DNA of 61,853 nucleotides, counting the filler, from Platydemus manokwari (lineage: Eukaryota): assembly GCA_037951405.1 (NCBI GenBank). It is 6 parts of 6 records of this genome, joined end to end, with 100 filler letters (N's around TTAATTAATTAA, not from the genome) between each part and the next. Parts side by side here need not be neighbours in the genome. Positions count along the whole stretch, not along the records: positions 28,884 to 39,143 come from JBBMOY011152549.1; 5 more parts are not named here. The stretch is one strand, 5' to 3'. The translations under genes were made by a program, and so were the position numbers. This document shows, piece after piece, positions 7,095 through 60,445 of this stretch. Below the pieces are notes generated by a model. That model had not been told where the DNA came from. It searched no databases and saw nothing but the letters and a program-made list of their open reading frames with translations. Position 1 is the stretch's first letter, and the number at the start of each line of letters is the position of its first letter.

Positions 7095-7320
7095 ATTTGG
7101 AATTCAACTCAATACAATACAACTCACTCTCAATGTCTGGGCTCGGTCTGACCTCAAAACCAACCTACATGTGGATAACCATGGTATTGTATCAGTCAAT
7201 TCATCTTCAAAACTCATTGGACTAATTCGAAGAATTCGCTTGATTTCAGAAATATTCTCACTACGTAAAATCAACAATATAATTTCTCACAACCATTTCT
7301 GGGCAAATCAGCAAAAATAA
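7095..7320 (+). mobile_element. Decayed LINE reverse-transcriptase thumb fragment
   Basis: VWARSDLKTNLHVDN..IVS..SSKLIGLIRR resembles the CR1/L2 motif (F)DSDLKWN.HIDNIVSKA.RLLGLIRR. Confidence 0.3.
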
Positions 7321-9775: not shown

Positions 9776-9875
9776 NNNNNNNNNNNNNNNNNNNNNNNNN
9801 NNNNNNNNNNNNNNNNNNNTTAATTAATTAANNNNNNNNNNNNNNNNNNNNNNNNNNNNNNNNNNNNNNNNNNNN
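9776..9875. other. Artificial assembly spacer (44 N + TTAATTAATTAA + 44 N)
   Basis: Exactly 100 bp with a six-frame stop linker; identical structure occurs five times in the window. Confidence 0.97.
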
Positions 9876-13827: not shown

Positions 13828-14032
13828 TTATTCGTTATTTTCCACTATTTTCACGAATGATTTGAAATCTTCAGCTAACAACTCTGGCTCTTCAAGAGCC
13901 GCAAAATGGCCACCTCTGGGCATACGGGTAAATTGTCGTATATCTCGATATTTAATATTTGCTAAAGATTTTGGCACTAGTGCAATCTCATTTGGGAATG
14001 ATGCAATTCCAGTTGGTACACGGATGGGCAGT
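13828..14032 (-). CDS. EPHX1: Microsomal epoxide hydrolase (EPHX1/JHEH family), exon 6 (last)
   Basis: VPTGIASFPNE carries the acid Glu and MPRGGHFAALEEP the catalytic His; stop at 13828-13830. Acceptor CAG at 14035-14033 after a 49-nt phase-2 intron. Confidence 0.95.
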
Positions 14033-14081
14033 CTGATGAATAACAACACAGACATATGATAAAGACGAATAGCTTTTTTAC

Positions 14082-14319
14082 TTTAATATTTGTTGACTTT
14101 TCTCTCCAATAAATTCCTTATAAAGCATAACACTCGATGAAATGGAATTTGTAATATAATATATCATGACATTGGTCAACATTTCATCCATTGTAATCCT
14201 TGTGTTCTCCAGACCTCCATGAGGACTGGACAAATGATACGTTAAATTATTAGACCAAGCTCCAAATTTCTCAATAATATATGCTGCTAAACCGGAAGGA
14301 CTATCGGACAACGCAATGC
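14082..14319 (-). CDS. EPHX1: Microsomal epoxide hydrolase, exon 5
   Basis: IALSDSPSGLAAYIIEKF...DEMLTNVMIYY...SSVMLYKE, containing the second ring-opening Tyr; GT/AG boundaries with consistent phase. Confidence 0.95.
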
Positions 14320-14399
14320 CTGATAATATTGATTATGAAATTCATTCCATATAAATAATAATAATTATTATTAGTTCTGTTATTATTAATAGAATATGC

Positions 14400-14668
14400 G
14401 GTCAAACTCTTTAAATATCACCCCATCGAGTTCCAGAAAAACTTTAAATTCATCTAGTACCAGGATTGACTTTGAAGCAGTCAAAATTAGTTGAAATTAT
14501 ATTGAAATCTTTTGTACATCAAGCTGTATCTTGCTCATGAATTCACCCAATCAGATTTAACCACAATAATGATTAAAAATCGAAATAAATTATTAATAAT
14601 CTATTGTAATTGATAAATAGATCTTTGATTCGTGTTACTAAATGAGATGATATAAACCGAGTTTGACC
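14400..14668. mobile_element. pogo/Tigger-like MITE inside EPHX1 intron 4
   Basis: Terminal inverted repeats GGTCAAACTCTTTAAATATCACCCCA and GGTCAAACTCGGTTTATATCATCTCA (reverse complement of the right end) resemble pogo-type CAGTCAAACTCGG termini. Confidence 0.55.
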
Positions 14669-14709
14669 ATGTTATAGAGTAAATATGCATATCCACATCA
14701 CTTAATAAC

Positions 14710-14924
14710 CTATTGTAGCAGGTCTCGTAGCTTGTATCCAAAAGTAACCCATTTGGTTCACTATGTTCGACATTAATTGGCCAAAAGGATAAACCAAATG
14801 CATGTCTTGTTCATCAAGAAAATGGAATTTGGTGGGGAGAAATGAACCAATAAAAACCTTGATCAAGTATCGATAATCATTGAATGGTGATTCTGCCATA
14901 TTGACATGAATGCCAGCTATTTTT
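14710..14924 (-). CDS. EPHX1: Microsomal epoxide hydrolase, exon 4
   Basis: KIAGIHVNM...QMGYFWIQATRPATIG, containing the first ring-opening Tyr. Acceptor TTTTCAG ends at 14925; donor GT at 14709. Confidence 0.95.
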
Positions 14925-16178
14925 CTGAAAAGAATCAAATTAATGAGGATCGATTGAAGCATATATTTGTCTGTGTATAGAATCATTTGTAAACAAGACA
15001 TTTCCTTATCACACATCAACATACAATAAAATCTTAGATTTGAGATGGAGAATCTAAATACTGTTCTAATTATAAAGATTTATATTAAAATAATCGCAAC
15101 ATGGTTGAAAGAACCGCTGAAAATCATCATGTATGGCTTAGACATTGAGTACACCAGATATGAATGTCATGTCATGTCAAAAGGACTTCTATGTCCAAGG
15201 AATGTCGAATGAACACATAATTTATTCCAAACTAAATATGACAGGTTTTCGAGAGAAAATTAACTGCTCCGTCACCGTTGTTGTAGCACTATCCACTTCA
15301 GTCATTGATCGTTGAAACAAAAATTCGTCGATCATTACAAATCTTCAGAAGATCGATTTGTGTAAAAGAGCTAGTTGGATTCTGTTGTAAACAACATCTA
15401 GAAGATCCAATTTATTCAATAATGATTATATCATTCACGACAAACCTCATTAATATATCACCAAAATAAACTGCAATTTATCACTTTTTCTCTAACGACA
15501 AGCAATTCATGAAATATTCGATATAAATCATTTCAAAAATTATAGGAAATAAAATTTGGATCAAAATTCATATCAGACACACTATTAGAAATGAAGGTGA
15601 TAGAGTATCAGGAAGTTACCAGAATGAATGAAAATGAATTAAAGATATTCATATTAGTTGCCGTTGATAGTAGAATTCAAAACCAAAATATGAGCTTTAT
15701 AAAATTATTGTAATTTTAAAATTTAAAATAATCAATAACATTATTAATTTAAAATATTATCATCGACTAGAAACTAAAAAAACATTAAAAATCTCACAAT
15801 ATAAAATTTATTTAATATTGGCTAGATAAAGCAAATTTTGATATTATAGAAATGGAACATTATAATAAATTACCAGTAACTGGCTACATATGATTGGCTG
15901 ATAAAATTAAAATTGTGTGTTACAATTTTGTTTAACAAGTAGCGTTTATTTTGATTAGGAGAGAAATTTGTATTGAGCACAATATGGTTATCAAATAATG
16001 AAACAATAACCTGTTACATATAGTATGTTGAATTCATGATTGATACGAGAGGTGGTGAAAGGCGCCAATGAGATATTATGATATTTGTGTGAACAAGTTA
16101 TTTCATTCAAGTATATTATCAGACCGTTATAATAAATATTGGACAGAATAATATTCAACATACAATATCCAATCTTAC

Positions 16179-16479
16179 TCAGGATTCATTTTCGACATCG
16201 ATGAAGCAATTAGTGACCCATAATCACCTCCTTGAACATAAAATTTGGATGTGATGTTCAATCGATTCATCAATTTGAACATTGTGTTTGACATCTCTAC
16301 CATACCGAAACCAGGGTGCAAAGACCTATCGGACCAGCCATACCCCACAAGTGACGGACAGACAATTTCAAATGCATAGGAATCTTTAGTGGTTGATTGT
16401 AGCAAAGGTATGAATTTATAGAATTCGAAAAATGATCCTGGCCATCCATGAAGTAGTAAAACGGGTATTAATTTCTGAC
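16179..16479 (-). CDS. EPHX1: Microsomal epoxide hydrolase, exon 3
   Basis: PVLLLHGWPGSFFEFYKFIP (oxyanion motif), CPSLVGYGWS, YVQGGDYGS (nucleophile Asp). Acceptor TATAG ends at 16480; donor GTAAG at 16178. Confidence 0.96.
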
Positions 16480-18195
16480 CTATAGGAAAATAGCTTCATT
16501 AGGCATGTACAAATCATTGGTTAATATTTTATTATAATTATTGATATTAAGCGGGAACAAAATGTCTCGATAAAATTAGAATCAATTGTATGGATGATCC
16601 TTAGCGATCAAATCTCATTTCAAGTCCGTAATAACAAATCATTGATTTTCAAAGAATATAAATATATATTCCTCGATCAACTTTCATCATCAGGCTTCAC
16701 TACATTCGACATCTTTATCAAAACGAATGCCGTTGGAAATGTTTTATGAAGCAATAATTGATAGGTCGAGTTGTATTTGTTGTTGAAAGTCTGTTATAAA
16801 CAATGTGAATATATTGATTTATTGATTATTATCATTGCTTTAGGTGTAAAATGTTTATCTGAACTTATTGAATACATATTGTCGTGATATTTATTGACGC
16901 TTTATTTATCTGATCATATTCGGATTTGAGAGTTTATACGATAAGTACGAGATAATATCAATTATAAATAATAATAATAATCAATAATAAATGGAATATT
17001 CAATAATAATCTTAATCAATTTTATAATGTAACCCAGATTTTTTGATGGGATTTCAATTGTATTTTGGTCACAAGTTCTATTCTGTGTACTGTTGAATTA
17101 GATTATGGAAATGTCGCCACCATTAATCGGATTATTTCTCCCAGAAAAATTCTAGTCCAAAAACGAGACAAGCGAGTAACGTCGGTTTTATTTCAAAAGA
17201 ATGAGTAATTTGTTAACCCAGATTTACACGCATACTCCTTGACAACGATGATTTGGTATCCATAACAACAGAATCAATGCTATCAATTAAAGTAGCCCTA
17301 AACATTTTCAGTGTCAATGTTTTTGTCTTATTTTTTATTTTATTTCTGGTTTTGACAGCCATATTTATACTATCTCTTCGAAATATTGATCTTAGTGTGC
17401 CAAATTGAGATTGATCACAACAACATTTAAGAGCCAATATATGATGATATTTCGATATAATATCATTTGATGAATCTAATTCTCATTTAAATGACCTTTG
17501 TAAATATTCTTATTCCCAGTTTACATTTTCAATACATTCATGGCTTTAACTGTTATTCTGCTTAATCGAACTTTTGGTTCACAGAGAATTCCCCCACTTA
17601 CTGAGTGCAATTTACAGGTATTCAAGGAAAACATAAATATAAAGATATTTATAAATGCTGATACCCCCCCCCGGTACAATTCAACACATTACAATGCTAT
17701 ATTTACCAGAATAGCTCATTTCTCCCACATAAGCTTATTTCAATAACACTCCACATAACACAAGAAACATCAATCAATAATAATCAATAATTAATCAATT
17801 ATAAAATAATCAATCGAGATAAATATTGATTATAATTAAAATGATTCTCAAAATATGCACAAAAGCTACTTGTGATTGATTAATGAGTACCATTTAAAGT
17901 TAAATAATTCTTAATTGATGTCATAGAAATGTGAAGATATTTCTGATAATGATATCGATATTACAGCATTATTCCATTTACATAAGCAGTTAAAAGTTTT
18001 CCGAGCATTGTTGTGTGCATTTATCTGTGCTACAGTGACGATAACTCAACTTCAACACACACACACACCTCACACACCATTAAAACATCAGCAACTCAGA
18101 CTTGATGTACCTCACATCGTTTGTTGCATAAACACGATTCACAAATATCGATTTTTTTCAACCCATATAAGTCCAGATATAAATATTTAAAAAAC

Positions 18196-18442
18196 CTTTA
18201 ATCAGTTGCGGTTTGATGTGAATAAAATGTATCTGCAGTCCGTTAATAGTTGTAAAGCGATGTGGGAACATATTGATAACATCCTCCCATTTCCGCCACT
18301 GATACGTGTTTAACCAATAATTTACTACCAAATTCAAATAATCCCCATTGAAACCATTGGAAAAATTGGAGTTCGGCATCGTTACAGGTGGATTTCGATT
18401 TTTGAGCCGTTCAGTCAAAGTTAACAAGGTAGAATTTGGAAC
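18196..18442 (-). CDS. EPHX1: Microsomal epoxide hydrolase, exon 2
   Basis: EHN-domain sequence FSNGFNGDYLNLVVNYWLNTYQWRKWEDVINMFPHRFTTINGLQIHFIHIKP; phase-1 donor at 18195. Confidence 0.93.
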
Positions 18443-18487
18443 CTTGGAGGAGTGTATTTCATTATTTAATGATAATAAGTAGAATAC

Positions 18488-18667
18488 CTTTATAATTATC
18501 TCGTTGATATCTGTTTTGGTATTGTCTCGTTCTCCCCACTGATCAGACGTTTTAATGTCGGGAAGATCTGATAAGAAGAGATCCCCAAGCTTATCATTAT
18601 GTAGCAATAATCCAAAAAATAAAATAAAAATTGGAACAGCGCAAAAAAAACATTTCAAAGATGCCAT
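18488..18667 (-). CDS. EPHX1: Microsomal epoxide hydrolase, exon 1 (N-terminal membrane anchor)
   Basis: ATG at 18667, hydrophobic anchor CFFCAVPIFILFFGLLL, and the WG motif. The six exons sum to 1386 nt = 461 aa + stop, a typical mEH length. Confidence 0.9.
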
Positions 18668-19640
18668 ATCAATTAATTTAAAGTTACTAAATCAAATTCG
18701 AATTAATACCAAATACTTTTTAATTTATATGATATAATAAAACAAGAGAGTTAAAACATCTTTATTTCTGTCTTCAAAAAATGTTTATAAATGGCATGTG
18801 GTAAAGGAACTGAAAATATTGTTATTAAAAACCGTAGTTGACAATATTGAAATCTAGCAGCATTGGAATTCAAATATTATTAAAATAAATCAACAAGCAA
18901 AACATATTTAATGAAAAAATATTATTAACTTTGTTTACAATACGTCAGACATCATAAAATATAAAACTATCTCCGCATATTTACTACTTTCTAACACTAC
19001 CCAGCTGATAGGCAACAACAATAACAGTTTCCCTAGGTGGTCTAAGATTGTTTTAAATATTTAATTAAACTGCCCGTTTTTGAGGTATTTAAATCCATGT
19101 TTCCATTGTATTACCTCGTTTCGAAATTTAGCTACATGGGTTTTCTATTATTTAGTTATATAATGATAATCAGCATCAGTTTTTGATCAACAACGACTGT
19201 CATACGTCTCGGGTTTAATCAATCAATATTAATGGAATTTATCTTTGTCGTCAGAGAATTATCTACTTCATGGCATGTTTATAAACCGTTCATTCATGTC
19301 AAGAATTTAATTATAAGAATCTCAAAAGGGGTATCGTAATATGTTGCTCATTACATTTTCTAGCAACGTCATTATCTAGCTTTAGTATTCGTAGGAACCA
19401 CACGAAATTAAAGGGGTAACATTTTTCTTATGATAATGTTAAAATGTTCTTGTTAATTGTTTTCTTATTTTTCTTCTTAAATTCTATTTTTCTCTAATTT
19501 TTTACAAATTTTAAAATATTATTTGTATATTTACTGTCGTTTATAATATCATCCATATTCATTATTATTATAATTCTTAAAAGATAATCATATTACCTTC
19601 GTCAATAATTATTTCATTACTTTTTATAATACGGTATCTT

Positions 19641-19740
19641 NNNNNNNNNNNNNNNNNNNNNNNNNNNNNNNNNNNNNNNNNNNNTTAATTAATTAANNNN
19701 NNNNNNNNNNNNNNNNNNNNNNNNNNNNNNNNNNNNNNNN
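19641..19740. other. Artificial assembly spacer (44 N + TTAATTAATTAA + 44 N)
   Basis: Same 100-bp structure as the other spacers. Confidence 0.97.
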
Positions 19741-20049: not shown

Positions 20050-20690
20050 GCCTGAGAAATACAGACTAGAAAAATAACCAATGAGAACTATAATTGGTTT
20101 TGCCCCACTGTACCAGAATATGATCTCTTAATTTGAAGCAGTTTCAGACGATATTGAAGATAATGACGAAAGACTACAAAAAGCATTTGGTTACAAAGAT
20201 TATTGACTAACATTGATTAAGAGCTCTTGAATACCGAAAGGATTCTGAATCTGCAGAAATGTTCTTCCATGAGAGGATGCAGAATAAGAGAAAGAAATCT
20301 AGATGCAGGACATCAATGAATTATCAAAGATATAAAATGATGATTAAAAAGCTTGTTGAAGTAAGAGAAATGACAAATGTAAACCCTGTTTTAATCCAAT
20401 GAATTGCTACAACTGTAACAAGCCAGATCAAGTATCACGAAATTTTAATATTTCAAAGGTTATAACATGTCATGTCTGTGATGAAAGAGGTTATGTAGCA
20501 GAAATTGTTCGAATTAAAACAGTTGTAATAAATATAAATATCGAGTATATCGCGACAAAGAATACTATGCCAATTTGGAAAAACAGACTCTCCCAGCAGA
20601 AACAGCAAGGACCCACCCAATACAGGCATGTCAATGGTGTTGGAAATTCCAGTAGCAATGATAGAAACTACAAAAAACGATTCTAAAATG
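20050..20690 (+). mobile_element. Decayed LTR-retrotransposon gag relic with two degenerate CCHC zinc knuckles
   Basis: CYNCNKPDQVSRNF and CHVCDERGYVAEI are CX2CX4HX4C knuckles with the His and last Cys lost. The upstream sequence is A-rich, coding-like and broken by stops. Confidence 0.55.
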
Positions 20691-21922: not shown

Positions 21923-22652
21923 ATGTCATCTGGAGTAACAAGTAGATTGGAATCCAAACGACAAACAATTGAAGATGCCTATTCACCTCCTGCGAATTTT
22001 CTCGAAATAGATGTCTGCAATTCACAAACTCATGGAACAGGCAAGGGAAGATACACAGATTACGAAGTTCGCTTGTCGGTAAGAATTCATAATATCAAGT
22101 AATAAATTAATTTTTAATTTCCCAGACAAATCTTCCTGTTTTCAAACTTAAAAAATCATCTGTAAGGAGACGATATAGTGATTTCGAATGGTTAAGATTG
22201 GAATTAGAAAGAGACAGCAAAGTAATTTATGAAATCAAATAATTTGTTTTAAAGTTCTATTGATTTTCAGATAATTGTTCCAAATTTACCAAGCAAGGCT
22301 TGGGCACGTCAACTTCCATTCCGTGGTGATGAGGGTATTTTTGATGATGATTTCATCGAAGATAGAAGAAAGGGATTGGAAGATTTTATTAATAAGTAAT
22401 ATTTCAATGAATGTCGTAAAAATATTGATAATTACTAAGTTTGGTGTTACATGATGTTTTATTATTAAATAATTAATTAAATTAATAATAAATAATTGAT
22501 TTATTAATATCGCTTAGGAATTTAATTAAATTTAATTATTATCCAGGGTTGCAGGACATCCTTTAGCTCAGAATGAGAAATGTCTTCACATATTTCTCCA
22601 GAGTGAGGAAATTGATAGAGATTACGTTCCAGGAAAAGTGAAAAATTCCTAA
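21923..22652 (+). CDS. SNX3: Sorting nexin 3/12 (PX-only SNX), 4 exons: 21923-22078, 22126-22221, 22271-22395, 22547-22652; 160 aa
   Basis: Spliced product [33 protein letters not shown]...YTDYEVRLS|[31 protein letters not shown]|[42 protein letters not shown]|[18 protein letters not shown]...YVPGKVKNS*. All introns are GT-AG (47, 49 and 151 nt); total 483 nt. Confidence 0.97.
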
Positions 22653-24283
22653 TAAGTTGAATTATATCAGAAAGATCGATTATCCTAGATTAATACTTTG
22701 GGCATTACTTTTGATTTATCAATTGTTTCTTGATTTGTGCGTCTGTGTGTACAAATAAATGGACAAAGATATTTTATTATCGTTATCTGAACTCTGATTG
22801 ATTGTTTTCTAATTGTGTGATTGTGTGTATTTTTCAAGTGAGTTAGTGGAATGGAATCTCTGATTCATTGTTCCTATTGGTCAATTGATTATCTACAGTC
22901 GATCGATAATAATCAATTTGTTGTTGTACAAAGTACAACAATTATGGAAATTTTCACAATGATTACGTAAATAATGATTTATTGATTTTTAATGATCAAA
23001 TTTCCATAAATCTTATTTGCCATGACAATACACAAGTCTCATCGAATTATCTAGATGAATAATTAACGATTTGGTAGTTTTGTAAATTGATCATTGAATA
23101 GACTTGCGATATTAATACAGAAATAAACTATGTCAATGTGTAAAATTTTTGATCAAACTTTACGGTTTTAATGGTCTACAATCATTATGAGAAAGCATTT
23201 TGAGCACCCTGACGGTTGGATATTAGATGGAATATCATAAAGATGTTTTATAATCAATTGATTCAAGGTAATTTCGTGTTGAATTCGAATAAAATGATAG
23301 AAAATGAACTCGAAAAAGGAAATTTTATCTAAAGGTTTTGATGTTTTTAATCACCAATCGTACATCTTTCAGCGGACATCTTATTTTCATCCAATTTTGC
23401 CGTGTCAATGTCTTCTATTCATCAGTTGAAATATGAAAATAAATATCTTTCGAACTGGATGTAATGTTAATATAATATTTACAAATGACAGATGATTGTT
23501 GTTTCAAATCATTATCTAATAATGATATCATTTTGATATTAGAATGATAATGTGACCTATATTTTGTATCATATTGATTTATAGAGGAAATACAGACATA
23601 ATTCCATCTAGAATAAAACTTGGAATGTTAAATAGGAAATACAATAAACTTAAAACGAAACAAAATTAATATGAAATAAAGTACTATTATTGACATCACG
23701 TATATTCGTTACAAATAAATAAATCAATCATATTGGGTTACTATAACAACGCCCAATGTTACCATGACAATTCAAAAAAATAACATGACAAATAAAAGCA
23801 AGCACATGTTAACGCAACAAACCAATTACAACATTTAATCAATAACAACATAGATCAATACCATGTAAACAATAACGCAAATTTGGATTAACTCAGAAAA
23901 TTAAAAGCATAGAAATGATTGAGTTCGACTTAGAAATTATTTTCCAACTCTCAAGCAGTGAGAATTAAAATCGAACACTGATAGAATTCATAGATTTGAG
24001 ACAAGTATCATCGCAAATACAGATTATATGTAAATTCTTGTTGCTTAATTTATCAGCATTATCTGCAAGGAAATTCTTTCTTATGAATTAGCCCGCCAAA
24101 GTTCATGTTAAACATTTAACATTTTTAATAAAATCAAATCTCATTGACCTTATTTTTTCTCGAGATTTGGAAGGCATTAGTTCTCATCACTGGCTTTTAA
24201 TCACCTTCAAGGCGCAACAGCTGAATACAACTATTTCACATTTTATTAATACTTATTTTGAATGAGATGAAAAAAACAGATTT

Positions 24284-24558
24284 ACACCTTAGAATCCTTG
24301 TTTAAGCACTTTAAACATTTGTATATACCAACCAACCAATTGCAAGGGAGTGAGATTGTAAACGGTGATTGGAAAAAGGGGAATAGTTACAAAAACGCAC
24401 ATATGGATTGGCCAATCTCACTCACGCAAAAAACTCAAAAGGAACATGGAAAAAGCAAAGATCGAATCATATGCAATACAACATGACACAAAGAATTACA
24501 CATTGATCGCGAATTTAATTATAGATGTAAAAATGGCAAACTGCCAGTTGGAAGTCAG
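24284..24558 (+). mobile_element. Penelope-like element 3' end/pseudo-LTR, copy 1
   Basis: Shares gaatccttgtttaagcactttaaaca...aaagcaaagatcgaa...acaacatgacacaa..aattacac...gatgtaaa.atgg..aactgccagttggaa with 41761-42053 and 46148-46500. The repeat itself is clear; the family assignment is inferred. Confidence 0.55.
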
Positions 24559-27280
24559 ATTTTGTTCATATATTGAGAAATATGTTGACTGCATATATTT
24601 TATAAGTCGTACTGACTAGTTGAAAATAAAGTCATCCTTCTAGTTTTTGTAGTCAGAGATTAGTCGAATTGTTCAGAAGTATTCTAACACTTATGTCATT
24701 ATGATTTATAATATATTTTTCAGTATCACGTTCTTTTGATCATCACAACTAGAAGTACGTAACATACGACTTATTCACTGCTAAGTGACATGCATTTGGA
24801 GGGATTATTTCAACGGTTTCTATCAGTTTTTAGCTGCATCATAGACCAACAATTTATTGTGGTTAATTTGAGTTACACAATAAAGTATTTATTGTGATAA
24901 ATTGATAAACATGCAAAATATACATCATAATATATGAACAAACAAACATATTCTATTGTTTATTAATTCGGTAAGTCTGAATCATATTGAAATGTTTGAT
25001 AATGTTAATAATAAATTGATATCAAATCAATTATATTGTTCTATCGTAACACTGTTAATCATCTCTTCTTTGAATGTGGAGATTCTCGCAGGGATGATTT
25101 TTAATTTCGGTTATTTTCAATTACATGATCTTCGCTGGAGTAGACCTCCAAAATATAGAATTCAATAGAGAATATAAATAATATTTAGATAATTTCAGAT
25201 AACGAATATAGAAAATAAATAAAGATAAGAATATGTGAGGATTTTAAAGTCAATTAATATTTAAATGACCATTTTTAATAGAAAATATATTGATTTGTAA
25301 AATATAAATAATCGATTCAATATATTTGTAGATTAAATATACTCTTGTTGTTAGAAAGTCTAAGATTCGTTCTTAATTCGTATTTTATGAATTAATAGCT
25401 GCTAACAAATCATATTGCAAATGAAATGATATTATTATTTTTACTCAAAATATTGGTCATTATCTGAAATTGTTAAAAGCATATCTTTTCTGAACTGTTC
25501 AATCTGTTGATGCTCATGAGTGTGCTTTATTTGCCGAGCTTTATGTAAAAATTGAGATAATATTTCTAGAGTTACTAATATGATCTTTGTATTCTCCATC
25601 TCAGTAATTCACCAGATAAGTAATTCCTTCAGATAAGCAGATTTTTTATTTTCATGTTTGCTGATCAGCAAAATATTACGTATATGCACATATATTTACC
25701 AATAAGTATAAGATCGGTTAGCATAAGATGGAATATTAAATGAATTTCGATAATCATGCTACTAATCTATTTGATGGACTTGTAAGGATGAAATTATATA
25801 TTATGGGAACAATTTGAGATAAGTGACAAATAATATGATATTTAAAGCAAACATATATTTACATTTATCATGTTACTCAGTCATGATAATTCCATCATTC
25901 TCATAATTAATCACCATACAAAGTAACTTGAAAAGTAGACATGGGGTTACACAAATATAAACTGGATATGGGTCTTGTGATTATTAAAAAGTTGATATTT
26001 TCTTCTAATTAGATATTATTCCTGCATACTCAGTATAGAAAGAAAACCATTAAATCTTCAGTTCTAAGGGATCATGCCACTACGCAACTGCAGACCTAGT
26101 TCACCATTTGGTTACTTTCTATTATTATAAATAATATAAAAAATATTGATAGAAATAATCAAAAACAATGTTTGAAAATATGTTCCTAATACAAATCATG
26201 GGATAATTATTATTAATGGTTTTCCGAAATGATACAGATTACACTAGTTCGTGATTATGTAGGTTAATATTTTATTTGTCGCAATCAACAGAGCATACTA
26301 TTTGTTAGGCAAGTTAAAAGGAAAGCTTTTAATATAATATTTATTTCAATGTTTGTTTTACCGTCTCTTCAATTTAGAAATCGCGATATTTTTTAAACGC
26401 TATAAAAGATTTAAGAACTTAAATAGTTTTCATAATCATTGGAACAAGAGATAAAATCTGCCTTTAGGTTGCAATATTCGATTTGACCGGCCTCCGCAAG
26501 ATCATTGTGACTAATCTATGACAGAGTCTTCTTTATAAGTTCTTCCATTCAGAATGTTTTGGTCTTTGATTCAATAAAATCAATAAACTATTCTACGATT
26601 TTCATTTAATTTCATTCGACAATAGCATGACGCTATTCTTTGAATTCGCCTATGAATCACTCAACAACCAGTCCAATATTTCATTATTTGATAAATTATG
26701 GTGTTAGAATTCGCGAACGAACATAGGAATATATTTACACTTATTTTAGGTTCACGCCTTATGTGATTTATTATTAATGATTTACACCACTATTGTCTTA
26801 ATCAGTCTCAAATGGTTCTTTGCTATAAATATCGTTTGCTTCGCCTCGCACTCAATCTATAGTTTGAAAGTTATGATGGTGACAATAGTAGTATTGGTCG
26901 TCGAAATCTATCTCTATAATGATTGCCTCTGTCTTTTCAAGGATTTTTTCATATTATTTAACTTTTTAAAATTTTGATTGCAGCAATAAATACTAAAATT
27001 ACTATAAAATGATGTGAATGCACAATTAATCGTTATCACCTAAAAATTCTATAAATGACAAGATCCTAAATAATGATGAGCCAATCAAAATCGACTTCAA
27101 ACAAAAAATGGATTAATGAAATAATGATAATAAAGCAATGGTAAAATGATTTTACAATCACTATATTGTAAATGTTTTCGAAAGTTATGCCTCTCCGTGA
27201 TAATGAGGTGAGATCGTTAATTCAAGATGCCAATTAATAGGATATGTTAGGATATTAATCAATAATTTAGATCTGAAAAC

Positions 27281-28783: not shown

Positions 28784-28883
28784 NNNNNNNNNNNNNNNNN
28801 NNNNNNNNNNNNNNNNNNNNNNNNNNNTTAATTAATTAANNNNNNNNNNNNNNNNNNNNNNNNNNNNNNNNNNNNNNNNNNNN
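28784..28883. other. Artificial assembly spacer (44 N + TTAATTAATTAA + 44 N)
   Basis: Same 100-bp structure. Confidence 0.97.
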
Positions 28884-29138
28884 ATACATATATATAATCA
28901 ATATGTTGACATCCTGATTTGTTACCATAATAATAATGTTGTTTAGCATTGTATTTGTATCGGTGATTTTATTCTCAGAAGTTACTTTGTTATTATTTTT
29001 GAAATAAATATTTGTTTGTCGTTTTTTTCGTTTTACTTTATCAATATCACTTATTATACGAAATCAATATTGCAATAATAATAATAATAATAATAAAAAT
29101 AATTTTATAATTAATGACAGCTAATAAATGTACTATAG

Positions 29139-29243
29139 CAGAAGTGGCCAACTTTTATGTACGTAAGATCGACTTTTCATTTGAATAACATCTCACGCGA
29201 CCGACTAAAATTAGCTTCAAGATCGACCGGTTGGCCACCCCTG
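29139..29243. mobile_element. hAT (Buster/Charlie-type) MITE, copy 1, 105 bp
   Basis: TIRs CAGAAGTGGCCAAC / GTTGGCCACCCCTG; 8-bp TSD TACTATAG/TACTAAAG with central TA; near-identical second copy at 36647-36752. Confidence 0.9.
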
Positions 29244-29416
29244 TACTAAAGCTTCATTAATTATATAAGCTTCTGCCAGTACTTTTACGTTGAACCCATT
29301 TTGACTTTGCTAAAAATTTAATTCTCCGACTATTGATCATAATATTGATATTGTGTAATCATTTAAGATATTCGCATCGATTGATACATTGAAAAGTGAA
29401 TTTATTTTGTTTTATT

Positions 29417-29427
29417 CACACACACGT

Positions 29428-29461
<34 letters not shown>
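29417..29461. repeat. Compound (CA)n(TA)n microsatellite
   Basis: cacacacacgtacacacacacacacatatatatatatatatatat is directly visible. Confidence 0.9.
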
Positions 29462-29860
29462 TTCGATTTTTGATGTGATCAATAGTTATTTCTTTTCTTT
29501 TATTCCTTGCGTTCTTGAAACTTTTGGAAATTACTGATTTCCAAGATATTCTGTTTCTAAACCAAGTTATTATTTCTAATTGATCATAAGGACCTCAAAT
29601 CTACAATAATTGTAGCCGTTTCATTAAGTAAATATAAAAATCATATTGATTAAGACATTATATATTAACAATCCAATATAAAGTCAATTCATCATCATAA
29701 AAATAAATAAATAAAAAGAGAACATTTATATTTCTGGCTCAGGTGTATTCACTAGATTTTAAATTTATTTCGTGTTTACCATAGATATATGATACCCATA
29801 ATACAATGTCCGTAAGCACAATTTGATATATTGATTTTTCCCGTCACATAATGGATATTT

Positions 29861-30096
29861 GTGCCCTTGATTATGAAAGTGGTATAAGTCATATATTTCT
29901 TGTTTGGAGATATTAAGGAATTTGCATGTTAAAGAATTAAAAAATATTTGTGTATTATGGAATGAAATATTTTGACAATTAATTAGCGCCGGTAAATCAG
30001 CATTTAATATGATCGTGAAATTTATTACCATTTTTAAATGAAAATTCGGTTTTAAAAGGTTGAAATGACTTATACCACTTTCATAATCAAGGGCTC
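29861..30096. mobile_element. Non-autonomous DNA transposon (Sola-like MITE), 236 bp
   Basis: Perfect 30-bp inverted repeat GCCCTTGATTATGAAAGTGGTATAAGTCAT (29863-29892 and 30065-30094), G(A/T)G termini and a 4-bp TSD ATTT on both sides. The Sola assignment is inferred from the AWWT TSD. Confidence 0.8.
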
Positions 30097-31521
30097 ATTT
30101 ATTTCAACCATTATCTAATTTTTGATTTTCTATTTTTAATTTCCAATTCGAATTTTGATCTTTAAGCAAAATTTTGTTTAAATGTTTCTATTTTTCGTTT
30201 TACTTGTAAATAATAATTCCTTTTAAAATATAATTTGAAGTTTCTATTTATAATTTATAATTTTATTGTTATTCATTTATCGTTATTGTATACATATACT
30301 TTTATTATTATTTTATAAGCTTACTAATCATCTGTATGTTCATTATATCGAAATACCCGCAATACCTACCAATACACATATTATTAATGATTATATTTAT
30401 TTTAACCCAACAGATTATTATCTTGTGTTTAGTTTTATTTCTCATTATTTTTCTATAAATGGAAATAAGTTTTGATAATTCTGCTAGACAGTCCACAGTT
30501 GGTCCCAATTGTTTGTTAGAAAAATAGATCATTATATTCACGACGAAACAGTTACAAAACAAATTCCTATCATGATGAGATAAACGATGAAATGCATTTG
30601 TCAATTTCTCTATAACATTTCTCTATAATCAAACTTTCATCGATTTCATTAAAACAATAGGATCATTATAAATGGTTATTTTATATTTTAAATAACATAA
30701 TAGTAACTGTAAATATGTTAAATTTGTTATTTCTATAACTGAAAGTGATTTATTTTACTAGATCTGACTTCCTTACAATTTATAGGTTAGCACTGAATTA
30801 ATCAATAACTAACTCTGATTATAAAGCCGTATGTTTTATGGCAATTTTACAAAGCATTTATCAGGGACAGTACAATCTTAATTTAAATAATTTATGATGA
30901 CAACTTTGTAGAACGCAGTTTCCTATTGTGCAATTTTGGGAATTAGCGGAATATATTGAATATTGGTAATCATAAAAATAATCGATAATACCTTATATTT
31001 AAGCAGAAATAGAAGAATTTTAGTTAATTTTCTAGCGACCTTTGTGATTATTTCGTCTTATTTATGTTGGGTTCTGGCCAATCTATAAACATTAATTTAA
31101 TCTGGAAAAAATATGTGTATACATTTGCATGATAATACGTACGAAATATGTATTAATTTTTATTGTCTCAATTTTTATTTAATCAGAGTGTATTTTTTAT
31201 GTTTCTACAACTCTTGGATTTTTTGGGCAAAAAACCTGTTTGAAATATTGATATCTATAATAATTATTATTTATATATACGTCAAATAATAATATCATTA
31301 AAATCACCATTAGTAAATCCATCGAAATTCCCTAAAATAATAAATTAATTTGTAAAATATCAATACGCAATGAGTTATCGTCCATTAACAGAGAAAAATA
31401 AATTGCCATCTATTTTCGTGCATGAAAATCATGCCACAGAATAAAATAATTACTCGATTAAATTTAAACGAGGGATATTTTCTCTGCCTAATAAATATAT
31501 TCAGAGAGAATTTCTCTCATC

Positions 31522-32091
31522 TGTGAATATATTCGTTAGCATTAAATTTAATCGAAGAGAATATCTGCGAGTGAATCACACAGCCAATATAAGGCAGTAA
31601 CAACAATAAACACAATACTGCCATTATTTTCACTGCTGACGTAATACGCTAAATCAATTGGAGAAGACACATCATTTAAATCTCAATCTGGAGCACTGAA
31701 GGAGATCATCTGCTGCAGAAGACCAATATTCCTGTATGTGACCGGCATTTGCTGGAAGACCCAGATTAAGACCAAACCTGTAAAATACTGATCTATATTA
31801 TATGCTGTATCGTTTTATTTCTATTATCTAGTTTGTTGCTCAAAGATCTTAAAGGTAACCGGTTTTGCTCCAAGAGTGTGGAGTTTATCAACCTCCATCT
31901 TAATCCAGGAGTTGTAATGTTATTCTTTAGCGTAATTTGATGTATAGTGTAGATTTAAAAATCAATCTGTAATTTTTATTTTAGTTTATGATAATCAGTT
32001 TTAGTATCGGTGTTATATTAAATAAACATTTGTAGCATTAAATTCTAGTTCTTAATAATATAAGGCTTGTAAAGTCAATTATTCGTAACCA
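31522..32091 (+). mobile_element. Possible solo LTR
   Basis: A TG...CA-bounded block with CCAAT/TATAA near the 5' part and AATAAA about 65-70 nt from the 3' end; no TSD confirmed. Confidence 0.3.
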
Positions 32092-33023
32092 TTTTAATAA
32101 ACGTAGTTAATAGTTTTGAATAGGGTTAAGTATTTTGAGACTGATAATTAAATTAATTAAAATATATCACAACTGCCACACCTATTGTCACCATACAATA
32201 AGGCTGCGCGAGTTGAAGGAACATCAACATAAGGTAGGTTACACCTGTGGCCTTAATAAAGAACCCGTAGAAATTGATTTAGACAGTAGTGGCATCAAAT
32301 AGGATATATATATATATATATAGCATGGGCAGGCCCTTTAACTACTTTATTTTTTACTTAAATCTCACCTTTGTAATCACACCTTTTATCTTTTGTCGAA
32401 TTCTCAAATCACATCTTTAAAATTACGCCTTTTATCGTTTGTAGTATCGAATTTGATCCTTTCACCGTCCGATAACTTCAGAATCTTGTTAGAATTTTTG
32501 TGAGTGAAAATAATGGCTTTGACACTCCTTATATAGTATTTTCTAGGACTGATTCTGAATAATCGTTTAAAATTTTTATTTTCTTTTTTCTTATTGGATA
32601 TTGAAATCCACCTAGATTAATAATTTTAATTTATTATTCACTCGTATTATTCATAATATTTTTCTTTTTCTCCAACATTTAAAATTTCAATTTTTGCCCA
32701 CAAATACGCCCACACCCCATTTAATTGAATTTTGCCCATATTTATTTTTTATTATTCCTCATAATAATTTTTTAATACTATTATTATCCTATAAAATAAT
32801 AATAATTATTATTAATATTGTAAAATTTGAATTTTATAATTTTTATTTTTTTATATACATAAATCGAAATACAATACAATTTTTTTCACATGAAAATCAT
32901 AAATAAATCGAAATACAATTTTTTCATTCAAGATCAGATAAAGTAAAAATCAGGATAAAAATCAGAATAATCAGAATAGTCACAAAATGTAATTGTTAAT
33001 TATCACAAATTATTCGTCCATGT

Positions 33024-33958
33024 CTACCTTCCTTTGTAGACTCTGATAGGAGGAGATTGATTGATGAGGCGATTTGATCTTTTGATATAGGGATGATATT
33101 GTTGAGGCTGAGCTTATTGAGACTGAACTACTTGTTGCTTTTGATGATCAATTTCTGTGGCAGTACCATGATGGAGATAACTTTATCTTTTACTATTGGG
33201 TACAATAAATGCTTTCTTGCAGGTAAAATATCATGTGGTGATTAGAGACCACTTTTTCCATGTTTGCTATTGTTTTGAACTCTATTGCCCTTGATGTGCC
33301 ATTTCATTTTAATTTATTGGGTGTTGCAGATAATCGTCTATCTGGAGTCGTTATCCACTTATCCTTCCCAATCTCATACATTGACGCGAGTGTGTTTAAG
33401 CATGTGTCAATTTCCTTGGGTTTGTATTTCCCATCTGTCAATATTCTTGTAACAGGTAGCATGTATACTATTTTCCCTTGATACATTACTGCTAATTCAT
33501 TGGTGCATTTTGGCACGTGTGCTAACATATTTTAGACTGTTTGGCATTTGAAGGTGTAACACTTCTCCGACTACTCATGTGAAAATTCCCCTTTTTTTGA
33601 ATAACACCGGTGCCATTAGTTCTGGATTAGTGACCGTTACAGCGATTTTTGTCAGTAATAATTCTCTATTGATTTTGCAGTCATTGGTTATGGTTTCTTG
33701 ATATAGCTCGTACATGCGGTTGATTTGTCTATGATAAAGGTAATCCATCTTATTGTTTACGTATGTCATTTTGATGTCATGATTATGTACTTTTTTGGCC
33801 TCTTTGATTTGCTCGAGGCTTAAATAGATGCCTTTGTAGTTCGTTGCTATTACCACTTGCCGGCATTTTACTGCTAACCCTTTCTCTATGAATCTCATAG
33901 CACCTGATGCACTGGTTGATACAAATATTCTTGGTGTTGCCTTTTGTTGAACATGAAA
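33024..33958 (-). pseudogene. Endogenous gB-type (class III fusion) envelope glycoprotein gene, decayed; chuvirus/herpes-gB-like env of a retroelement or EVE
   Basis: Joined frames read YVNNKMDYLY...ELYQETITNDCKINRELLLTKIAVTVTNPELMAPVLFKKRGIFT*VVGEVL/TFKCQTV*NMLAHVPKCTNELAVMYQGKIVYMLPVTRILT...CLNTLASMYEIGKDKWI..P...PNKL...IEFKTIANMEK/GL*SPHDILPARKHLLYP. This follows the conserved motif order of chuviral/gB-type env proteins. There are several stops and frameshifts, and the N-terminal domain and TM segment are missing. Confidence 0.8.
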
Positions 33959-34833
33959 TAAATTTTTTTTGTGGGTTGGGGGTTATTGATTTTACTGGTC
34001 CTATAGAAGGCTTCAATAGCTCGTATGAGGACGAAGCTATCGGAAACTTAGACTGAATGAAAAAGGTTAACACTGATAACCATGCAATATTTGATAAACT
34101 GTGGCAACAAGGACATATGATATCTCTATGACACCAGAGTAACCTACGAGTTGAAATGATATTAATAATGTTAGTAATCGAAATGACAATACTTTTAATA
34201 CAACCCTTTTAATTAAATAATTTATTTGAAAAAACGAAATTAAGTAACACTAAAAAAGAACAAAACAAATTTACCAAAATGTGTAGTACACTGCGCAAGC
34301 AGATAACTACTTGATAATCAAAACACCGAGTACCGGAAGGAAAAAATTAGGGAGACGACACAAGACAATTAATATAAAATTAATTAAATTGTTTAACAAT
34401 TATGCAATGATAATTAAGTAATCTTACGAATAAGAATGAATAGCTGGATCACGCAAGGTTTGTCTAACTCGAAATGAATATCGTAGCTTAACTTTTGTAG
34501 TGCGTTATTCTGCGAATAATCGTTAGCTGTGGTAGGGTAATTGTGGTGAATGCTGTTTTTTTGTTGAGTTTATATAGTGTTTGCTATGGTGCCGTTTCTA
34601 TAGCTGGCGCCATTTTTATTCTTTGATGTTATTTTTTAATTTCTTATATTTGTACAGCGCAATGCTGTTACTAAATTTATTCTCTATTGTTAATGCTTAT
34701 GGATGTTCGTTTTTAAATCTGATAAAAATCGAATATAATGGATTTTTACTGCCACTATTTTTATTTATTTGTTATCTGATTTATTTCGTTTCTTTTGGAT
34801 CTGATAAAATATAACCTATTTCATAAATTGTAC

Positions 34834-35161
34834 NNNNNNNNNNNNNNNNNNNNNNNNNNNNNNNNNNNNNNNNNNNNNNNNNNNNNNNNNNNNNNNNNNN
34901 NNNNNNNNNNNNNNNNNNNNNNNNNNNNNNNNNNNNNNNNNNNNNNNNNNNNNNNNNNNNNNNNNNNNNNNNNNNNNNNNNNNNNNNNNNNNNNNNNNNN
35001 NNNNNNNNNNNNNNNNNNNNNNNNNNNNNNNNNNNNNNNNNNNNNNNNNNNNNNNNNNNNNNNNNNNNNNNNNNNNNNNNNNNNNNNNNNNNNNNNNNNN
35101 NNNNNNNNNNNNNNNNNNNNNNNNNNNNNNNNNNNNNNNNNNNNNNNNNNNNNNNNNNNNN
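34834..35161. other. Assembly gap (328 N)
   Basis: Plain N run without the linker. Confidence 0.99.
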
Positions 35162-35413
35162 TATTTCATTGTCCATTATAATATTTATTATATAATGATG
35201 CCTGGAGGATGTTTTTTGTTAGAAACTTTTTCACCCATTATTCGATTCATAATGAGATTCAATGTAGAATCCAATAACCTAAATTTGTATTTTTACCATC
35301 AATTTACATTATGAGAAGTAATTTTGTCATTTATAGATTTTTGTTTGATCTTCACATCACATAATTTTAAATATCAGTTGTTACTAATACAATGTATCAA
35401 TTATTATGTTTAG

Positions 35414-35504
35414 AGATTCAAATTCGATAAACCAAAACTTGCTTACTTATCGGTAATCGGAGGTTTTCTGGTTCAGTTGACCCTTGGAACCGTGTACACA
35501 TACG
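35414..35504 (+). CDS. First coding exon of an MFS transporter (invertebrate oxalate:formate-antiporter-like family)
   Basis: RFKFDKPKLAYLSVIGGFLVQLTLGTVYTYG matches the TM1 motif V(I)GGFL.HLTLGT.YTFG(N) of this family. It is flanked by a TTTAG acceptor and a strong GTAAGT donor. No further exon was found before the scaffold end. Not in the ORF track. Confidence 0.75.
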
Positions 35505-36646
35505 GTAAGTCGAAGAGCACTGTTATAATAGGAATAATTTGCATTAAATTAATGACTAAAATAATGATAAAATTATAATTTATTATTAAATTATTAGTCA
35601 ATCGTTTGGATATCTTGTTCTATTCACTTGACGGTGGGAATGGAATAATCGTCGCTCCTAAATAATAATATATGACTTCATATGATCAAAACTGATCAGT
35701 TTAATAATAAAGGTTTCTGATGCCAATCGTTTAATTTCGTCAACAAGCAAATGACAAAATAATTGATAAGTTCACAATAAAAATTCATCGATTTATATCC
35801 AAATTACTCATATAATTCAAATGTTAATCAAAATCATCACTTGAGACCAGCTGAGATTAACAGTGTTCAAAAATAAATTGTCTGGTTTATGGCGTTTTAT
35901 AAATAAAATCGAATGAAAGTGTTTAGAATTTCTTTAATTCGCAAAATGATTGACGAGCTTTCATTGGAATCACTTGGTTGGTATTAATTAATATCGATTT
36001 GTGGAAATACTTTTTGTGTTGTTAGTTTACTTTATTGACCGATGGAATATATTAATTTATCTTTAATTGATCGCGAGTGTCACAATTTGCTTTGCGAATA
36101 TGTAAGATTTAGAAGTGAGGTTGCAAATATTAGGAAATGTCGAATTTTGAATTCCAATTTGTTCTACTAATATCTAAAGAAATTTTCAATAGTTAATAGT
36201 GTTGCATAAATAACACTTTTATTAGAACCCACATAACTCAAAATAAAACCCATTCAACTGAAACCGGTTTCAACTAACTATAACTTAAAATATACCATGT
36301 CTGAAATAATGTATAATTAGGAAATTGTAACTGTTTTGTGAGGTAAATTTTTATTAGACGATCTGTTTTTCATTGATTCATCATGACCGTTATTGGTTAA
36401 TGCCAGTATATGCGTAGTGATATATTTTACCAAATTGAAATTATTGCTCTATCTTGTTTATAATTAGTCGAATATCGTAATTGTATTACTGTAAAGCATG
36501 CTTGTGGATAAATTATCAAAACAGGGGTTCCCAAGATTCCTAAAATAATTATTTCAATGGGAATCATTCATACATAACAAAAGTAATAAAATATTTTAAT
36601 TAATTGTGAAGCTTAGATAGAATTTATAATTTTCAATCCACTACAC

Positions 36647-36752
36647 CAGAGGTGGCCAACTTTTGTGTACGTAAGATCGACTTTTCATTTGAATAACATC
36701 TCACGCGATCGACTAAAAATTGGCTTCAAGATCGACCGGTTGGCCACCCCTG
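36647..36752. mobile_element. hAT (Buster/Charlie-type) MITE, copy 2, 106 bp
   Basis: TIRs CAGAGGTGGCCAAC / GTTGGCCACCCCTG; degenerate TSD CACTACAC/ATTTACAC; near-identical to 29139-29243. Confidence 0.9.
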
Positions 36753-37978
36753 ATTTACACAATCAAATAAAATTCGATATATTTTCTGAATTTCTAACTT
36801 TTTGATCATGATTAATTTTCTTACTTGTCGTGCCTTTTTGAATGTGATGTGTTGAGAAATGTCAACGATAAAAATAAAATGTATTCAACCAATGTTATTT
36901 TATTTTGTTTCCTTTATATAGTAGCTCTATTTACTGAGGTTATTTTTCTATTATATTATCCTATTAACTCTCAAATGAATTCAGTTACCATATTCATGTT
37001 GTGATACTATGGGGGAGGGGGGGGTATTTTAATTGAGATATTGGTGTCAAGATAAAAAATGTGTAAATTTATTGTATAAAGGAAAAAAGGCCTGAGATGC
37101 TACCAATTATTTGTCGCTTTTTTTGTTATTAGACAAATTATTTCCAAAATATGAAATTTTAAAAAGTTCTTTTAAGGTTTGTCAATAAGAGCGTTTAATC
37201 AGCCTAACTCATTTTTACAATTTTTGTTGATTAAGCACACGAATATGTACAATAGTATTTGAGTCAATAATTTGTATTATCTTCCTCTTCTGGACGATCA
37301 AATTTTGAATGGCACTGGTGGAATATGATGACTTATTGATTCTCATTTTATGGTAGACTAAGATATGGAAGAATTAATTCCATCAATATTCAACTTTTAG
37401 CAATGCTGAAGCGTAGGTTCCGTGTATTAATCAGGTATATATAAGTAATAATAAATGTAAGGCAGTAAAATTTATTTATCATTAAAAATTGGAAGCAATA
37501 TTGATGAATTTTAATGTGACTATGTAACAAAATAAGTACCGCCCATATTCGATAATAACCAATAGAAGATGTTTCCCTTGGGATTTTGTGGAAATATGAT
37601 TTAGAATTTTGTAACTAATCTGGCGGACATTGATACGAGTTGTACCAAATTAAAATATAAATTGTTTTTGGCATTATGAGTTCAAATTTGATAATTAAAA
37701 ATAAAATATTTAATCCGATGAATATGATTAATGTCAGGGAGGAATGTTCGAATATGAATTCGAATACTGCATTAGTATATGATTAAGAAAAGATTTCACG
37801 TAATGAGAGATATAAAATGAAATACTACTATTGGGGTTCTGGTTCAACAATTAATCCACAACAATTAATTCACATTGGAAAAAAAAGTTTATACATTTCC
37901 ATGACAAAACGTATAAAATTTATATTAATTTTTAATTGTATCAATTTTTATTTAATCAGCATGTGTTGGGAAAGTGAC

Positions 37979-38044
37979 CCAAGTACCTCAAACAACAACG
38001 AAAGGATAGAACCAAGTATCTCAAATAACAACGAGAAGATAGAA
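37979..38044 (+). repeat. 33-bp tandem duplication (PSTSNNNERIE / PSISNNNEKIE)
   Basis: CCAAGTACCTCAAACAACAACGAAAGGATAGAA is followed by CCAAGTATCTCAAATAACAACGAGAAGATAGAA. Confidence 0.8.
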
Positions 38045-39143
38045 CTAGATGACGACGGAAACTAGGATGAAGTGGTTTATCTTAAGGATAAGTCCGAGAT
38101 GGAGTTCGACTACAGATATTGGTAAATACTTACATTTTGTGTTTTGATTTAATCTACAATCTTTGTTTTGTATTATTGTATTTCTCAAATTTTTCCTTGA
38201 TTATAAATGTATAATGTATTTTGTCATCAATGTTTAATGTATTTGTTAACAGTAACAGTTTAAAAACAATTGAAATTTTTCATAGAAAAACTTAAAATAA
38301 AGTAAAAAATAAAATCAGACAACAAAAATAGTAAATAGCGCGCCTAAAATAATAATAACGAAAAAAAAATTTTACTTAGAAAAAATTGAAAATTGTTTTA
38401 GTGCGCTAATAATATATAGAAATAGTTGGAATTTCTGAAAATGTCTAAAAATTCCAAAATAATAGAATTAAATAAACAAATATGTTAAAATAATTAGAAT
38501 TAAATTTTTGGAAATATAAAATAATTTTAATTTCGAAAGGGAAAAATAAAATTAATTTTAATTTCTAAATCAAATTTTCCACTTCTAAAATAGTCTAAAT
38601 AGGCACCAAAAATCATAAATTTTCGCTCATAAAAATCTGGACTGAAAAAGTGAAAATCTTAAAAACAAGTCTAGGAAAAGCGCAATTTTAGGGAAACTAA
38701 GAGGAATCCGAACAGAGTAAAATTTATAGAGTTTATGAAAGAATAAAAGTTATATATTGTAAAAGTATAATTAAAAATACTCAGTCGGAAATGCAGAAAT
38801 ATGAATGTTAATATGAACATAACAACCGATACAACAAGAGTAACAAAATAATATATAAAGTAAGTCCGACTGATAGTATTCTAAAAATCTTAATTTTACG
38901 AGAATGCAGGACCTGAATGTAAGAGTTTAAGAAGATAACGTGATCTGGATTTTCAAAATTTTATTACTTAATTCATTCTATTTTTTTATTTTTTGATTTT
39001 TGTAAAATTTGCTGTATTTATTTTATTAAATTCTGTAATTTAAGAATAAATTATATATATAGTATTGCAATGTAGTATTGATTTATTGTTTACAATGATC
39101 CTAAGAGGAATCAGTGACATGTAATTGAATTTGATTTAGCTAT

Positions 39144-39243
39144 NNNNNNNNNNNNNNNNNNNNNNNNNNNNNNNNNNNNNNNNNNNNTTAATTAATTAAN
39201 NNNNNNNNNNNNNNNNNNNNNNNNNNNNNNNNNNNNNNNNNNN
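39144..39243. other. Artificial assembly spacer (44 N + TTAATTAATTAA + 44 N)
   Basis: Same 100-bp structure. Confidence 0.97.
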
Positions 39244-59832: not shown

Positions 59833-59999
59833 NNNNNNNNNNNNNNNNNNNNNNNNNNNNNNNNNNNNNNNNNNNNNNNNNNNNNNNNNNNNNNNNNNNN
59901 NNNNNNNNNNNNNNNNNNNNNNNNNNNNNNNNNNNNNNNNNNNNNNNNNNNNNNNNNNNNNNNNNNNNNNNNNNNNNNNNNNNNNNNNNNNNNNNNNNN
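59833..59999. other. Assembly gap (167 N)
   Basis: Plain N run. Confidence 0.99.
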
Positions 60000-60396: not shown

Positions 60397-60445
60397 GTAG
60401 ATAATACATTTATTCCTTATTATTGATTTCATTGATTCATTTTAG

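Follow-up and report, generated by a model that had tools for sequence, protein, structure and literature searches.

A truncated and decayed class III envelope fragment, probably derived from a gag-env-pol Ty3/gypsy retrotransposon, in likely flatworm DNA

The minus strand of positions 33955-33164 of the window, by which we mean the whole 61,853-nucleotide stretch of DNA that was analysed, very probably carries a truncated and broken piece of a class III envelope (env) gene from a gag-env-pol Ty3/gypsy retrotransposon of what is likely a free-living flatworm. Because this broken piece of 790 bases was likely left by an env-carrying retrotransposon of a kind already described in planarians, it most probably amounts to ordinary genomic debris, and as a dead fragment of an element kind already catalogued in flatworms it carries little weight. 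It does point to a further env-carrying family of Ty3/gypsy type in this host.

Extent and damage of the env fragment

Pfam family PF24664 (Monjiviricetes_fusion) is matched by three collinear minus-strand frame segments spanning 33955-33164, or approximately 265 codons. Segment A (33554-33955) covers profile positions 259-381 (E = 4.4e-14, 51.8 bits) and segment B (33259-33570) covers positions 376-473 (E = 4e-11, 42 bits), and both bit scores exceed the curated cut-off of 27 for membership. Segment C (33164-33259), delimited by tblastn and by an alignment with 10 relatives, covers positions 474-527 with an E-value of 0.18, and no other family was matched by Pfam. When the first open reading frame (ORF) was examined by itself, its match began at profile position 245. 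Among 18 frames of 28884-39140, matches with E ≤ 0.01 were found in the env frame only, and the scan of the three plus-strand frames of 31000-34830 was empty. With its segments in profile order and the sole match at this threshold among 18 frames, the env signal is far above chance. All of the motifs quoted in the initial annotation of this DNA can be read in the minus-strand translation. Of the 61 bins, the kilobase 33001-34000 is the richest in GC, at 36.6% in a window that averages about 27%.

Some aspects of that annotation must be revised. A full HMMER search recovered 48 relatives, including 20 with E ≤ 1e-10, and tblastn of all 48 against the window gave matches confined to 33991-33119, which ended at 33164 for seven relatives and reached 33119 for one. 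The homology therefore runs from about 33955 to 33164 and does not continue to 33024 as had been proposed. In the numbering of relative P0059 the fragment represents residues 390-654, which is the middle 265 of approximately 616 Env residues and not the whole C-terminal half. A Gln/Pro-rich frame that had been included as an env tail has no Pfam match, and the relatives follow another frame.

The damage is distributed over all three segments. Segment A, which would hold the last part of domain II together with the central helix of domain III, is 40% identical to residues 375-507 of relative P0063 and 36-46% identical to the long relatives, and it has an in-register stop at 33577 near its 3' end, followed by a frame switch. 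The beta-rich, domain IV-like segment B is 34% identical to P0063 residues 527-598, with in-register stops at 33534 and 33306 and a frame switch at its 3' end. Segment C, which would begin a domain V-like arm, has a single stop at 33244, and its tblastn high-scoring pairs (HSPs) have 38-48% identity and end at 33164-33197. Overall, the reading frame of the copy switches twice, near 33560 and near 33260, and is interrupted by four stops in register. Profile positions 1-244, the N-terminal part that includes domain I with its fusion loops, were not found in the env copy, nor was a signal or N-terminal anchor, and in the alignment with 10 relatives the homology stops before their C-terminal membrane anchor. 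With this damage and these losses, the copy is dead and lacks its transmembrane segment, just as had been annotated. Three overlapping contigs of one sequencing run have 0 differences to 33108-34035, breaks included, and the breaks are accordingly no artefact of assembly; because the assembly may itself have been made from this run, the agreement of the contigs does not constitute independent support.

Two candidate remnants of the missing ends were rejected. A stretch of 19 residues at 32995-32939, in frame with segment C and with a hydropathy of 2.8 (rare by chance, as only 11 of the window's 2,637 spans score as high), could be taken for a retained anchor. Because it is unlike the relatives' anchor, lacking the WG..FGQ..G..G pattern closely common to the 10 aligned relatives, and because it sits in a repeat approximately ten times deeper, it was ruled out; segment C also loses its Pfam match when extended to include the stretch. 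Likewise, the start of the ORF might have been a remnant of the N-terminus, brought next to the rest when an internal part was deleted. This idea was discarded because the relatives align continuously from about ORF residue 4-15, and the upstream frames also have no PF24664 match.

Relatives and predicted fold

The relatives indicate what kind of element the fragment came from. Domains were scanned in 20 of the 48 matches, chosen for length, and in three cluster members, and a further scan at a looser limit comprised ten proteins, four of which were repeats. Among the 17 best relatives (E ≤ 2.5e-17), nine, including P0073, have an aspartic protease (PR) in frame after Env, and the remaining eight are pieces of 103-748 aa, five of which lay outside the domain scan. 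Reverse transcriptase (RT), RNase H (RH), and H2C2-integrase (IN) follow Env in the same order in P0064, P0067, P0085, P0107, and P0109, and P0066 has RT and RNase H. All six of these RT-bearing proteins have the motif VY[IL]DD and match RVT_1 and RT_RNaseH. Upstream of Env, a Gag or CCHC knuckle is found in P0068, P0087, and P0111. P0063 starts with a Bcl-2-like domain (Pfam E = 0.001) that directly precedes Env; the 60 PDB matches listed for this domain all belong to the Bcl-2 family, the best with an E-value of 0.01. In P0087 the order is CCHC, a ubiquitin-like domain (weak, E = 0.03), a Bcl-2-like domain (weak, E = 0.055), and Env. In the intact relatives, Env is thus part of one polyprotein, in frame between Gag, to which some add a Bcl-2-like domain, and PR-RT-RH-IN.

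Several of these proteins have additional peculiarities. In P0067, P0107, P0109, and P0111, Env is followed by two or three consecutive aspartic-protease domains, and in P0109 (4,844 aa) ankyrin repeats and a C2H2 finger occur among these domains. At NCBI, P0064 (2,627 aa, Env-PR-RT-IN) is filed under a Flavobacteriaceae MAG with the title hypothetical protein, and likely represents animal DNA that was assigned to a bacterial bin. Other searches were less productive: word-indexed searches for proteins similar to the first ORF gave no match, PDB sequence searches yielded at best a phage collar protein (E = 0.03, not a real match) and, in a second search, nothing, and the Atlas search gave no usable match. 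One of 33 candidate viral contigs matched (34% identity over 39 aa), none of 118 metagenome contigs did, and phage records matched at E ≥ 0.6 only.

A quick Env tree based on segment A included 37 of 56 proteins, three having no match and 16 being dropped for covering fewer than 85 residues. As far as the phylogenetic check recommended in the initial annotation is concerned, the window sequence falls among the retroelement polyproteins, without starred support for its own position, and apart from the stand-alone glycoproteins, which form a separate clade on a long branch (SH-aLRT 99). The stand-alone glycoproteins, which are 665-739 aa in length, match with E-values of 1e-6 to 7e-5 compared to 7e-26 for the best match. 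That annotation had left the origin open between a retroelement and a chuvirus-like insertion. Its retroelement reading survives, whereas a direct chuvirus insertion and a BEL/Pao env are both unsupported because the closest relatives are Ty3/gypsy-type Env-PR-RT-RH-IN polyproteins.

Structure prediction gave a pLDDT of 35 for the fragment folded alone as a single sequence, and of 78.5 for the model of P0063, which was built with 45 sequences. Among the PDB matches listed by Foldseek for the P0063 model, all 34 are herpesvirus glycoproteins and 33 are titled gB; the best E-value is 1e-13, with a TM score of only 0.3-0.4, an rmsd of about 12, and 9-13% identity. Among predicted viral structures the best match is a chuvirus-type G (E = 3e-42, 22% identity), the best matches being jingchu- and rhabdo-like viral G, and P0063 shares only 16-22% identity with the named viral G among the top rows. 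The model has a 48-residue central helix at 444-491 and helices before and after the ectodomain. Segment A maps to the last strands before this helix and to the whole of it, and segment B to the beta-rich region that follows, with domains II-V assigned by reading the predicted model against known gB anatomy. The likeness to herpes gB or chuvirus G that had been anticipated was therefore seen for a relative 40% identical to segment A, and both the profile (PF24664, E = 4.4e-14) and the gB-like fold predicted for that relative uphold the annotation of a class III, gB/chuvirus-type fusogen.

In intact elements, Env would presumably be inserted in the membrane, threaded between hydrophobic segments, and cut out of the polyprotein, after which it would trimerise and might fuse particle and cell membranes in the manner of gB, as the fold predicted for one relative suggests. 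The present copy would have been truncated by neighbouring insertions or by deletion and then have decayed by point changes. Domain I with the fusion loops is lost from it, as are the anchor and the whole of gag and pol, and it is bounded by other repeats. Given these losses and the point decay, it cannot make a fusogen, and at most it could serve as a putative small-RNA template.

Repeat context, known elements, and alternative origins

The fragment is enclosed by a nested-repeat patch at 31068-34805 that has no recognised LTR pair, gag, or pol. In one run the whole patch is repetitive, with a summed contig depth of 540 to 62,000 compared to 11-44 in the unique flanks. Over env this depth is 540-720, and in finer bins most env values are 340-1,350, with two bins falling to 65 and 33. 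A separate repeat of higher depth (33969-34400; Pfam empty) adjoins the 5' break, with a summed depth of 3,000-4,200 at 33969-34070 and 34 loose ends at 34009, and a T-run in other copies indicates that this is possibly a poly(A)-tailed element. Past the 3' break lies another higher-depth repeat (32937-33150), which contains the rejected hydrophobic stretch and has a summed depth of 5,400-9,300 at 33000-33101. Contigs elsewhere skip 348 and 469 bases within env, and a 328-base gap (34834-35161) is located 0.9 kb upstream of it. For gag and pol at the locus, none of the 34 HSPs (E ≤ 1) from 15 long relatives fell outside env, and the Pfam scan of 28884-39140 gave no gag or pol match. Similarly, no LTR pair or second env copy was found within the window, and there is no long direct repeat around env. 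With pol, gag, and an LTR pair all missing at the locus, the element class is taken from the relatives. The contig depth in one run suggests tens of related env copies, summed depth being no copy number.

This patch also contains, in a high-depth repeat at 31863-31967 on the plus strand, a sequence that weakly matches the Hatchet ribozyme (E = 0.096), scoring 24.6 bits where the cut-off is 51; the match probably arose by chance in AT-rich DNA. On either side of the patch, a short repeat that is MITE-like by appearance occurs in two copies (29127-29243 and 36635-36752) with 92-97% identity, and depth at the second copy is 19,000-44,000.

There are two groups of known elements with which the fragment can usefully be compared. 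According to the available portions of Chary and Hayashi (2026; PMC13524379), flatworm, nematode, and bryozoan errantiviruses have only gB-type ENV, in the order GAG-ENV-POL; Smed_errantivirus_1-6 are Ty3/gypsy elements of group C1a whose ENV is of the HSV/gB type and which have 1-215 copies, and ENV-POL matches occur in three triclad genomes. Residues 16-55 of the window ORF were compared, ungapped and by eye, with the last 40 residues of the published domain I-II alignments (the end of domain II), and 19, 21, 21, 20, 18, and 19 of 40 agree with Smed_errantivirus_1-6, respectively. The motif TNYKG has three occurrences in the part of the supplement available, all in Schmidtea errantiviruses. 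Judged by its env, the fragment belongs with flatworm GAG-ENV-POL errantiviruses, having 18-21 of 40 residues in common with the Schmidtea elements and Env-PR-RT-IN polyproteins as its best matches, whereas at the locus neither an upstream gag nor a downstream Ty3/gypsy pol was found. Since neither gag nor pol is present there, it is filed as a probable derivative fragment of an errantivirus and not as an element of that kind. As described, Smed_errantivirus_1-6 share with it a gB-type ENV, env before pol (as in the window's relatives), a likely flatworm host, and a multicopy state, but the window copy is a broken internal fragment without gag or pol. Since each of the six disagrees with it at approximately half of the positions compared, another family is likely.

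The second group is represented by Burro, or GYPSM1, which the available portions of Arkhipova and Yushenova (2019; PMC6431247) describe as a giant Ty3/gypsy element of dugesiid planarians with env in frame between BCL2 and protease. Its ORF1 of 4,873 aa has BCL2-like, BIR, and ankyrin domains around env, the env is related to gypsy Env and mononegavirus glycoproteins and is not called gB in those portions, and decayed Burro fragments with stops and frameshifts are known in a planarian. Set beside this description, P0063 and P0087 are Burro-like in having Env in frame between a Bcl-2-like domain and the protease, as is P0109 in its ankyrin repeats, but several relatives are shorter than ORF1 at 2,600-3,200 aa. 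The window's relatives tie the Burro domain order to a predicted gB fold, a link found nowhere in print in the portions available, and the main text of PMC13524379, as far as available, has no occurrence of the word 'Burro'. The Schmidtea elements were considered as Burro itself; the 14.5-18 kb given as their spans seem to count in flanks of 3 kb, and because the spans minus flanks are shorter than the Burro ORF, the two are not equated.

Some of the alternative origins for the fragment invoke other donors of env. A glycoprotein mRNA of a chuvirus or other Monjiviricetes virus might have been reverse-transcribed in trans and later multiplied, but we regard this as very improbable. It would account for the shared Pfam family, for viral G (jingchu- and rhabdo-like) as the best predicted-structure matches, with the fold of P0063 resembling that of Tacheng tick virus 4 G (E = 3e-42, TM 0.53-0.59), and for a locus without pol, and such insertions are common in arthropods (PMC10084718, available portions). 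However, identity to Chuviridae G and to arthropod endogenous elements is far lower than to the retroelement polyproteins, the viral G being 16-22% identical to P0063 in the top rows whereas the window is 36-46% identical to the long retroelement relatives; the stand-alone glycoproteins match more weakly and form their separate clade, and Pfam revealed no L or N remnant in 28884-39140. Thus, when PF24664 is matched in an invertebrate genome, a chuvirus insertion should not be the default reading. The likeness to herpesvirus glycoprotein B is one of fold only, as predicted for P0063, at the Foldseek scores given above. An env of a BEL/Pao element, for which the chance seems slimmer still, has a mosquito precedent in Anakin, a BEL/Pao retroelement with a chuvirus-like class III glycoprotein (PMC7642597, available portions), but in the window's relatives env lies upstream and in frame with a Ty3/gypsy-type pol. 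The markers of Pao-type elements are Peptidase_A17 and DUF1758/1759/5641. No Pao-type family was listed by Pfam in any of the 23 relatives scanned and no Pao-type pol was found at the env locus, and five of the six RT-bearing relatives have the H2C2-integrase in addition to their RVT_1 and RT_RNaseH matches.

Other alternatives concern what became of env in this genome. The 3.7-kb patch at 31068-34805 could be one mobile unit, a non-autonomous composite repeat that carried env as cargo and multiplied apart from the parent, an option that appears quite improbable even if somewhat less so than the two just described. An env inside an all-repeat patch without pol and contigs that skip bases within env are consistent with it. 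Against it, depth varies approximately 100-fold along the patch, as expected of nested unrelated repeats, terminal repeats and a second copy were not found, and env would still descend from the same element kind. Finally, it is scarcely credible that the host has domesticated this sequence as a fusogen or antiviral env gene and that only introns or errors of assembly interrupt it, although solo glycoproteins have been proposed as domesticated in mosquitoes (PMC7642597, available portions). The same breaks recur with 0 differences in the three overlapping contigs, the segments are contiguous on PF24664, leaving no room for introns, and domain I and the anchor are absent. In a small, truncated sample of 28 differences to deeper copies in segments A and B (among 40 listed of 142), 12, 6, and 10 fall at codon positions 1, 2, and 3, without a strong third-position bias.

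A derivation from a Ty3/gypsy gag-env-pol element is therefore preferred, and the prospect that had been raised of an undescribed virus family is not supported as a kind, since env-carrying flatworm elements of this order have been published (PMC13524379, PMC6431247, both as far as available). The particular env family in this host may be unnamed. It is unlikely that the host has an unnamed, recently expanded Burro-like family with a gB-type fusogen inside a Gag-Bcl2-Env-Pol polyprotein that is still moving between cells; a hint in this direction is one related contig with a depth of about 400, compared to 14-21 for the present env copy. If that were true, an endogenous retrovirus-like element would combine a class III fusogen with its own anti-apoptotic domain in a host with adult pluripotent stem cells. 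Whether gB-type retroelement envelopes carry elements between cells is unknown outside Drosophila according to the available part of PMC13524379, and planarians would be a good system in which to ask this question if intact, expressed copies exist.

Host genes and other features of the window

The window contains intron-bearing animal genes. The most informative is a complete sorting nexin gene (SNX3/12) on the plus strand at 21923-22650, with four exons, 160 aa, and introns of 47, 49, and 151 bases. In a quick tree of 50 rows, built with 49 of 57 matches (at least 130 aa) and containing no named triclad, this protein is sister to nine rows, eight of which are named cestode and trematode proteins (Neodermata), with an SH-aLRT of 94, under the mark of 95. 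The top BLAST scores are to molluscs and a brachiopod at similar identity. As judged from this tree of one gene, the host is likely a free-living flatworm. There are also a multi-exon epoxide hydrolase gene on the minus strand (13831-18691; EHN and Abhydrolase_1 matches), ion channel exons on the plus strand (60165-60636; Ion_trans, E = 1e-4) that we take to be EAG/ELK-like from their look, and a C-type lectin domain exon on the minus strand (3842-4108; E = 3e-4).

No match at the Rfam gathering threshold and no tRNA was found in the window. At 20360-20520 on the plus strand, two decayed Cys-Cys knuckle-like motifs resemble a Gag remnant and have no Pfam support. A dispersed repeat with a partly open frame occurs in three diverged copies of 74-87% identity (24281-24581, 41879-42076, and 46133-46457), for which the Pfam scan was empty. 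A further gap is present at 59833-59999, and the five identical spacers at 9776-9875, 19641-19740, 28784-28883, 39144-39243, and 52427-52526, in which two runs of 44 N enclose a TAA-rich palindrome of 12 bases, are assembly linkers between contigs and not biology. A 39-base tandem array at 45586-45752 comprises 4.3 copies with 92% matches.
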